Virus record (IMG/VR): IMGVR_UViG_2526164617_000008
Source of the DNA: a virus
Lineage: Duplodnaviria > Heunggongvirae > Uroviricota > Caudoviricetes
Length of the DNA stretch: 58,890 nt
Strand: one strand, 5' to 3'
The notes under the pieces are model-generated. The model was not told where the DNA came from. It ran no database searches and worked only from the letters and a program-made list of their open reading frames with translations. Every line of letters starts with the position of its first letter. Within the stretch, counting starts at the first letter, position 1. Position numbers and translations under genes: made by a program. Shown one piece after another: positions 48,147 to 49,213 of this stretch.

Positions 48147-48410
48147 ACGGCCTCCCTAACGGAAACCGCAGAATGCAGAAAATCGCAGGTGCATTTCTGC
48201 ATCTGTGACAAGGTGATGAGTTCAGATTGTGGTCGCATTTAAGTCCCCTTAAATGCGCAGAAGTCACCGGAGTTGTTCAGGCTCCGATGAGAGGATTATG
48301 GCGGATTGATTACGATAAATCAAAACTATCTTGAAGCCAAAACAGTGATCTTCGCTTTAAAAACCTTGTATACTTTCACCTAATCACAGCCAGAACTATG
48401 GATCTAACCA

Positions 48411-48788
48411 ATGACCAACAAAGAAAACAAAGATAAATATATTAACAAGTTCAAGAAAGAGCTTTCAAAATATATACAACCAACTGCTGGAGTGGACATT
48501 CAATTATTTAACTCTAAGGATGGTGGTGGTGTAATTAAAGCCACTTTGAATAGAAGTGGAAAAAGAAAATCATCTATTGCTGGTAATTTTACTAAATTAG
48601 GTGAGGCAATTACCTCGAGTGGGCAGAGGGTTTTTGGTGGTGATCTATCAAATGTGAATTTTTACGGAACAAATACGATTTTTGATGGAGATACAATATT
48701 TTTAATTAAATCACCTGATTCAGAGGAGTGGTCATCACAAAAAGCTTCCAAAGACGTAGAGGGCATCGTATTTGGAGGGAAAAAATGA
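48411..48788 (+). CDS. Hypothetical protein, first gene of AT-rich moron
   Basis: 125 aa, Lys/Gly-rich; strand opposite to flanking phage genes; promoter-like ttgtatact upstream. Confidence 0.5.
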   Translation: MTNKENKDKYINKFKKELSKYIQPTAGVDIQLFNSKDGGGVIKATLNRSGKRKSSIAGNFTKLGEAITSSGQRVFGGDLSNVNFYGTNTIFDGDTIFLIKSPDSEEWSSQKASKDVEGIVFGGKK

Positions 48789-49213
48789 TTAACATTACTA
48801 CTAAGGATGGCACTCAAGTCAGTGGTGAAGTAAGAGATCTAGTAATTCTTCTTGAAACTGATGGAAAAACGGTGTCTGATTATTTGCAGCCAATCCCTCC
48901 CAAAAAAGATACACACTGGAGCATGATTTTCATTCCGGTAGCAATTTATATACTACTTAATCTTGTATACATTATTGCTCACCCATTATTTCCTGAAAAA
49001 TATCTAAAAACATCAACATCTATATTTCTATTCATTTCCTTCATATTAAGTGCAATAGTAGCATATTTTGTTTTCCATAAGCATAAATCTGCCACTCTAT
49101 CCATATGCAGCTTAGTGTTCTTAGTGTTAATTGTAGGTGCTAACGTAGGGTTTATCAGTTACAGCGACCTAACACAAAAAGCGACGCAAAAATTAGATAG
49201 TTTGTCTAAATAA
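48785..49213 (+). CDS. Hypothetical membrane protein, second gene of AT-rich moron
   Basis: Start at MINITTKDG with GGAGGG Shine-Dalgarno and ATGA overlap with upstream stop; three predicted TM helices. Confidence 0.5.
   Translation: MINITTKDGTQVSGEVRDLVILLETDGKTVSDYLQPIPPKKDTHWSMIFIPVAIYILLNLVYIIAHPLFPEKYLKTSTSIFLFISFILSAIVAYFVFHKHKSATLSICSLVFLVLIVGANVGFISYSDLTQKATQKLDSLSK

Follow-up and report, generated by a model that had tools for sequence, protein, structure and literature searches.

In lambda, the prophage-encoded RexAB system, by which T4 rII-type phages are excluded, pairs a sensor with a membrane-depolarising effector and is expressed in the lysogen. The gp30/gp31 pairs of mycobacteriophages Sbash and Butters are also prophage defences, which exclude heterotypic phages, and PrrC is a single anticodon nuclease encoded in a Type I locus. 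A small sensor accompanied by a membrane effector on a prophage is a familiar kind of system, and many candidate defence systems—hundreds—already exist. Here, we analysed a pair of overlapping genes, A and B, in the window (the whole stretch of tailed-phage DNA under study, 58,890 nucleotides long). The most important finding, which an earlier, sequence-only reading missed, is that this pair is no local oddity: it represents a single clade within an ancient A-B module that has no name, spans bacterial phyla and is strictly paired. The cassette and its boundaries, in window coordinates, are as follows.

48163-48325, no strand assigned: conserved lambdoid backbone upstream of ybcN/ninB; left boundary, outside the cassette
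48367-48374, plus strand: candidate -10 element TG-TATACT, 36 nt before the ATG of gene A (putative)
48411-48788, plus strand: gene A, ATG start, 125 aa, RefSeq WP_000182282.1, phrog_18061
48774-48778, plus strand: GGAGG ribosome-binding site of gene B, within the 3' end of gene A
48785-49213, plus strand: gene B, 142 aa from an internal ATG, RefSeq WP_000608370.1, phrog_16940
49215-49247, plus strand: stem-loop with core GCCATGC-GAAGTAT-GCATGGC at 49221-49241, kept in divergent copies
49292-49321, minus strand: last 30 nt of replication gene P, a remnant interrupted by IS1 at 49322; right edge of the slot

Much of what had been read from the letters stands. The two genes are indeed coupled, by an ATGA stop-start overlap at 48785-48788, and gene B has a good ribosome-binding site, its GGAGG being spaced 6 nt from the ATG; the Shine-Dalgarno sequence of gene A itself is weak (GGA only). 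Both genes have a GC content of 0.34 (GC3 0.26-0.28), whereas the window averages 0.51 and its values in the flanks are 0.50-0.59, in line with the far lower GC that had been noted. Hydrophobic segments are absent from protein A, which is cytoplasmic. Protein B consists of a soluble N-terminal domain of ~40 aa, three transmembrane (TM) helices—residues 44-68, 71-100 and 103-141 in the AF2 model, with concordant hydropathy windows—and a short C-terminal tail, so that the predicted combination of a small soluble protein with a three-TM membrane protein is upheld by both methods. RefSeq names both products "hypothetical protein".

The signals around the genes are less clear-cut. The claim that the cassette has its own promoter fared only partly well: a generic consensus scan upstream of gene A returned no good sigma-70 site and found neither a strong promoter nor a strong terminator, but the TG-TATACT at 48367-48374 lends the claim slight support, and divergent copies show an extended -10 (TGATATAGTATAAT) at a matching distance, 38-40 nt from the ATG. 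At the other end, the stem-loop of the window starts 2 nt past the stop codon of gene B and folds at -16.6 kcal/mol (z -2.6). Longer, compensated stem-loops are found in other copies (L004 8804-8839, -27.5 kcal/mol, z -7.0; L003 about 8800-8829, -22.7 kcal/mol, z -6.1), and the structure is maintained via compensatory changes among copies that are 72% identical in DNA. Neither strand has a U-tract, so this is no canonical intrinsic terminator; the structure may form the 3' end of the cassette transcript or stabilise it. Rfam has no match in the cassette.

The pair lies on the plus strand, opposite ybcN/ninB (47691-48146), ninE, ybcO, rusA and quuD, which are all on the minus strand, as had been stated for the nin genes. 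Over 47000-49321, the window is 99.9% identical to DNA of strain A7 (L001). There, a DLP12-type lambdoid prophage at argU carries A-B between P (replication) and ybcN, in antisense to the early-right operon, where lambda has ren. The interval previously assigned to the cassette began too far upstream, at 48250, since its first ~75 nt (48250-48325) are part of the conserved lambdoid backbone; this backbone segment (48163-48325) matches HK639, phage 82 and lambda-like phages, and directly adjoins NinB in L003. On the right, collinearity with the intact A7 prophage, in which P occupies L001 13043-13756, stops at window position 49321. Positions 49322-51595 hold an IS1 fragment (with an insA-like ORF at 49376-49579) and then a complete IS21 (istA 49653-50822, istB 50834-51595). 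Because the IS1 fragment and IS21 replace the prophage replication genes, the prophage copy in the window is defective.

What occupies this slot varies between prophages. Sister DLP12-type prophages (L059-L061) have ren, emrE, ylcJ, ybcK (a recombinase), ybcL and ybcM between P and ybcN instead of the pair, and in the pair-carrying prophages ren is absent and A-B directly abuts P. Because the sisters fill it with ren, emrE, ybcK, ybcL and ybcM, the slot is a general cargo site, and the emrE, ybcK, ybcL and ybcM held there rule out the idea that it is a "defence hotspot". The description of A-B as a moron holds in most respects, with foreign GC (0.34 versus 0.51), insertion between the backbone genes P and ninB/ybcN, and other cargo at the same place in sister prophages; the promoter and terminator of this moron come down to a candidate -10 element and a hairpin that has no U-tract.

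Other accessory DNA was seen in the window and in related prophages. A second low-GC patch of the window (0.30-0.37 at 44600-45200) adjoins a 380-aa plus-strand ORF (44942-46084) between Q and the lysis genes, the position of which corresponds to that of the ompC/nmpC-like porin moron annotated in A7 and CV839-06. The L003 prophage (GCA_030132385.1) has further cargo around A-B in its P-NinB slot, at 5665-7348 and 9118-10971, including a colicin-like 377-aa ORF and a colicin-immunity-like 174-aa ORF (weak Pfam matches) as well as HNH and DndB-like genes; this slot is a multi-cargo stack within one prophage. Carrier prophages contain other likely defence cargo, namely an ImmA/IrrE peptidase with a DUF4411 gene, and KilA-N or Bro-N proteins with a BstA_C domain (L001 16499-18147; L007/L009 13685-14446; L038 14100-14867), located beside the repressor or elsewhere. 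Carrier prophages, in which such cargo is seen, therefore tend to hold several accessory modules.

Within the enterobacteria, the pair is patchily distributed and well preserved. At >=99% identity, A-B is present in 46 of 5426 complete E. coli genomes, and it was found in 18 IMG/VR viral contigs. A search by tblastn with A and B against 50,697 deposited phage records gave no match at the protein level, and megablast against deposited phages left the two genes unmatched, the match being limited to the first ~75-83 nt of backbone; A likewise had no tblastn match in 72,556 plasmid records. A word-index search yielded 13 clusters for A and 17 for B, with identity down to about 63-67%, and Enterobacteriaceae are the source wherever a cluster names one. 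The pair recurs in Klebsiella, Enterobacter and related prophages, where it lies antisense and has the replication module on one side and NinB or DUF1367 on the other, in surroundings whose replication, Q, lysis and packaging modules differ, as in mosaic prophages. At the DNA level, E. coli-type and Klebsiella-type copies are homologous over the two ORFs alone (48410-49228, about 72% identity), from which it follows that the pair itself is the mobile unit: A-B is a self-contained, horizontally mobile two-gene operon. Compared with these copies 72% identical in DNA, A has a dN/dS of 0.08 and B one of 0.08-0.13, and synonymous change is near saturation. Both genes are thus under strong purifying selection and, given these ratios, functional.

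The wider distribution of the pair is what changes its interpretation. An exhaustive HMM search with the A profile returned 111 representative clusters at E <= 1e-3, 30 of them at E <= 1e-10. These homologs are mostly 120-135 aa long and align end to end at 20-42% identity; Pfam searches on 87 distant homologs revealed no domain in common and turned up just a few rare fusions and a spurious cadherin protein. Genomic loci were retrieved for a tighter subgroup of A homologs, plus metagenomic and genomic contigs, and came from Bacteroidota, Myxococcota, Acidobacteriota, and beta- and delta-proteobacteria. In every one of the 22 distinct loci, gene A is followed at a distance of -17 to +10 nt by a gene for a membrane protein of 125-143 aa, with an ATGA overlap in 13 of them. 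Hydropathy calls three TM segments in 19 of these proteins and two in the others (L015, L016 and L033). The distant partners begin with a short soluble N-terminus, of consensus MKIGxIEGTPEEIKDLFxNxGLDLxDYI, and their profile aligns with that of the B family of the window at 97.2% probability (hhalign profile-profile, E = 2.8e-11, 111 columns). Since the distant partners are homologous to B, the A-B operon is strictly paired and older than the enterobacterial prophage clade.

One member of the A family departs from this architecture. P0104, encoded on 1.7-kb metagenomic contigs (L034/L035), is a 447-aa protein with an A domain at 7-119 and an HNH nuclease at 191-231; its C-terminal half is uncharacterised. 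The fusion may reflect an exchange of effectors, although it is a single case, on a contig too short to reach any gene B that follows, and it suggests that A could be a sensor or regulatory domain that is wired to different effectors. Four other members (P0083, P0116, P0132 and P0136) have N-terminal extensions of 80-110 aa with no Pfam match, of which that in P0083 resembles a signal peptide or membrane anchor.

The replicons that carry more distant copies are diverse, as exemplified by the following.

L028/29: a non-lambdoid phage, with early genes on one side of A-B and the lysis and terminase genes on the other
L038/39: another prophage, in which A-B adjoins the integrase and a BstA-like gene is also carried
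L033: a small MobC/relaxase plasmid
L025: a chromosomal islet after smc-zipA-ligA, near an Xre-MbcA/ParS antitoxin gene

Some further loci are flanked by transposases or integrases. Two copies are embedded in known defence loci: in L010, A-B is 112 nt upstream of BrxA-BrxB-BrxC (BREX) on the same strand, and in L019 it lies between the methyltransferase (mod, E = 2e-205) and the restriction endonuclease (res, E = 2e-290) of a Type III restriction-modification (R-M) system, beside an HKD+Snf2 helicase. A recognised defence system is therefore immediately adjacent in about 2 of 14 distant genome loci, too small a sample to gauge enrichment. Toxin-antitoxin (TA)-like genes flank the pair in L015, L023 and L025, and weaker defence-type matches among neighbours in the distant loci are to PsyrT, PDC-S05, PDC-S22 and LeoBC-like genes. 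In several loci, the neighbours are all housekeeping genes (e.g., those for tRNA synthetase, carbamoyl-phosphate synthase and EPSP synthase).

Family and structure searches, which had been proposed as a check, revealed no homology to a housekeeping or structural family in Pfam, NCBIfam, PDB or Foldseek searches. Neither A nor B has a significant match in Pfam or NCBIfam, and none of the 5027 models of PADLOC-DB 2.0.0 matches either protein at E <= 1, in keeping with the earlier impression that neither product belongs to a recognised family. Sub-threshold Pfam matches of B are to polytopic membrane families (e.g., 7TMR-DISM_7TM, 21 bits versus a cutoff of 29) and are typical of hydrophobic composition. 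Both proteins match PHROGs over their full length—A, phrog_18061 (1-125 of 125, E = 9.3e-85), and B, phrog_16940 (1-142 of 142, E = 2.3e-96)—and these are both annotated as "unknown function". The A-family profile gave only noise against PDB sequences (E = 0.023 to Spc97). The AF2 model of A, built from 9 close sequences, has an alpha-beta-beta-alpha-beta-beta-alpha topology (pLDDT 58, pTM 0.61) and nothing at E <= 1e-3 in a Foldseek search of viral models, and that of B (pLDDT 68) matches generic helical bundles only. At this model quality, which is of low confidence for both proteins, neither family appears to have a recognisable structural relative. Full-text searches gave no match to the RefSeq accessions or PHROG identifiers, nor did the DefensePredictor supplements, in a scope that excludes the study of prophage defences in E. 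coli by Brenes & Laub (Cell Host Microbe, 2025); there is a small chance that the pair was described in that study. Within the literature covered, we found no description of the A and B proteins, and their families are unnamed in databases.

We consider it close to an even chance, judging from genomic context, that A-B is an abortive-infection or exclusion module expressed in the lysogen, with A as putative sensor and B as putative membrane effector, roles that are suggested by analogy. The pair would be transcribed in the lysogen from its own promoter near 48367-48374, and lysogen expression fits both the antisense orientation and the conserved -10-like element. In B, KK precedes TM1 and the loop from TM2 to TM3 is invariantly KHK, a Lys/Arg distribution that places its N-terminal domain in the cytoplasm, alongside A. 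As sensor or regulator, A might bind this domain, and B would be either held in check by A or activated by it upon infection. Once released or activated, B could oligomerise and depolarise or permeabilise the inner membrane, and the outcome would be abortive infection or superinfection exclusion of other phages. Strict pairing, selection, mobility, the BREX, R-M and TA context, the HNH fusion and the topology of B all speak for a defence role, against which stand zero PADLOC matches, housekeeping neighbours in several loci, and the non-defence cargo of the slot (emrE, ybcL, ybcM and ybcK). The suggestion of an exclusion or abortive-infection module made by the sequence-only reading hence gains circumstantial support from BREX, Type III R-M, TA, prophage and plasmid contexts, but is weakened by the many copies that have housekeeping neighbours.

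The alternative that survives best, although we regard it as unlikely, is that A-B is an addiction or TA-like module in which B is a small membrane toxin and A its co-translated antidote. The pair would then lack a dedicated role against phages and would persist on prophages, plasmids and islands because its loss kills the cell. The layout, two small genes that overlap and of which the first encodes the soluble partner, would suit such a module, as would strong conservation despite a patchy distribution and the presence of the pair on plasmids, prophages and islets, in many cases next to further TA genes. However, the known TA families in Pfam and NCBIfam are unmatched, and a position within BREX and Type III R-M loci is more usual for defence cargo. 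One natural variant is uninformative on this point: in E. coli CV839-06 (L002 8162-9741), an IS1A inside gene A leaves a 150-nt stub of it with gene B intact, but the insertion probably silences B too. Addiction and abortive infection are not mutually exclusive, and the TA explanation overlaps mechanistically with the defence reading.

Somewhat less probable is a function in lysogenic conversion or host physiology, in which the pair would benefit the lysogen, for example as a small membrane transporter or through a part in the stress response or in envelope modification. The emrE, ybcL and ybcM genes that sister prophages hold in the P-ninB slot, the many distant copies among housekeeping genes, and the weak sub-threshold matches of B to polytopic membrane families are all compatible with this. 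Those Pfam matches are nevertheless all below gathering scores and of the kind produced by hydrophobic composition, and a patchy distribution on mobile elements, with embedding in R-M and BREX loci, fits such a function poorly.

We think it very improbable that the pair serves the life cycle of the prophage itself, with B as a membrane protein that acts like a holin or times injection or lysis, under the control of A. Class I holins have three TM helices, as does B, and the enterobacterial clade is known from prophages only. Yet B has no holin match in Pfam or PHROG, A-B is antisense to the early and late operons and distant from the lysis cassette, and the host prophages each have their own holin and endolysin (essD/rrrD-type cassettes). 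Moreover, there is no protein-level match in the 50,697 deposited phage genomes, and homologous pairs occur in BREX, R-M, plasmid and chromosomal islet settings. Finally, the notion that these are non-functional chance ORFs in AT-rich junk DNA, to which low GC and the lack of named domains might have pointed, is refuted by a dN/dS of 0.08-0.13 at near-saturated synonymous change, the 111 clusters of A, the homology of B across phyla and the conserved operon junction.

If the defence reading is correct, A-B would be a compact (~0.8 kb) module with a sensor and a membrane effector, from two families absent from Pfam, NCBIfam, PADLOC and PDB, and a tractable model of how very small membrane effectors are restrained and triggered. 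It could then affect the susceptibility of about 1% of E. coli, Shigella, Klebsiella and Enterobacter strains to temperate or therapeutic phages. Even as a TA-like addiction module, the operon, which ranges from Bacteroidota to Enterobacteriaceae, deserves to be named as a family and to be modelled in databases of defence and TA systems. Tentatively, and at somewhat short of even chances, A-B may be the founding example of an undescribed phylum-spanning anti-phage family, with a new ~125-aa cytoplasmic sensor and a minimal three-TM effector that is occasionally exchanged. Such a family would travel on prophages, plasmids and defence islands and have members within BREX and Type III R-M loci.

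Comparison with described systems highlights both similarities and differences. The copy nested between mod and res in L019 recalls guardians of the PrrC type, since accessory abortive-infection genes are found in R-M loci in the same manner; however, there is no homology to PrrC, which has no membrane component, and this embedding is seen in one copy of A-B only. Kiwa resembles A-B as a two-gene defence with a membrane component (KwaA) and a soluble one (KwaB), but its proteins are much larger and the PADLOC models for KwaA and KwaB are unmatched by A-B. The Sbash and Butters pairs, which can be likened to A-B by layout only, are prophage morons in which a cytoplasmic protein is encoded with a small membrane protein of several passes; their phylum is another one, their protein sizes and numbers of TM helices differ, and the Pfam and PADLOC scans of A and B showed no homology to them. 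Homology to RexAB was considered and rejected, with hhalign probabilities of 0.04% for the A family (73 sequences) against RexA and 1.4% for the B family against RexB. The architectures diverge as well: A has 125 aa versus 279 aa in RexA, B has three predicted TM helices versus four in RexB, and A-B occupies the P-ninB slot several kb from the repressor, whereas rex lies beside cI in the pRM operon. By analogy of layout, RexAB nonetheless appears to be the closest functional analogue of A-B, each being a two-gene prophage unit in which a soluble partner is encoded with a polytopic inner-membrane protein of ~140 aa (~144 aa in RexB).
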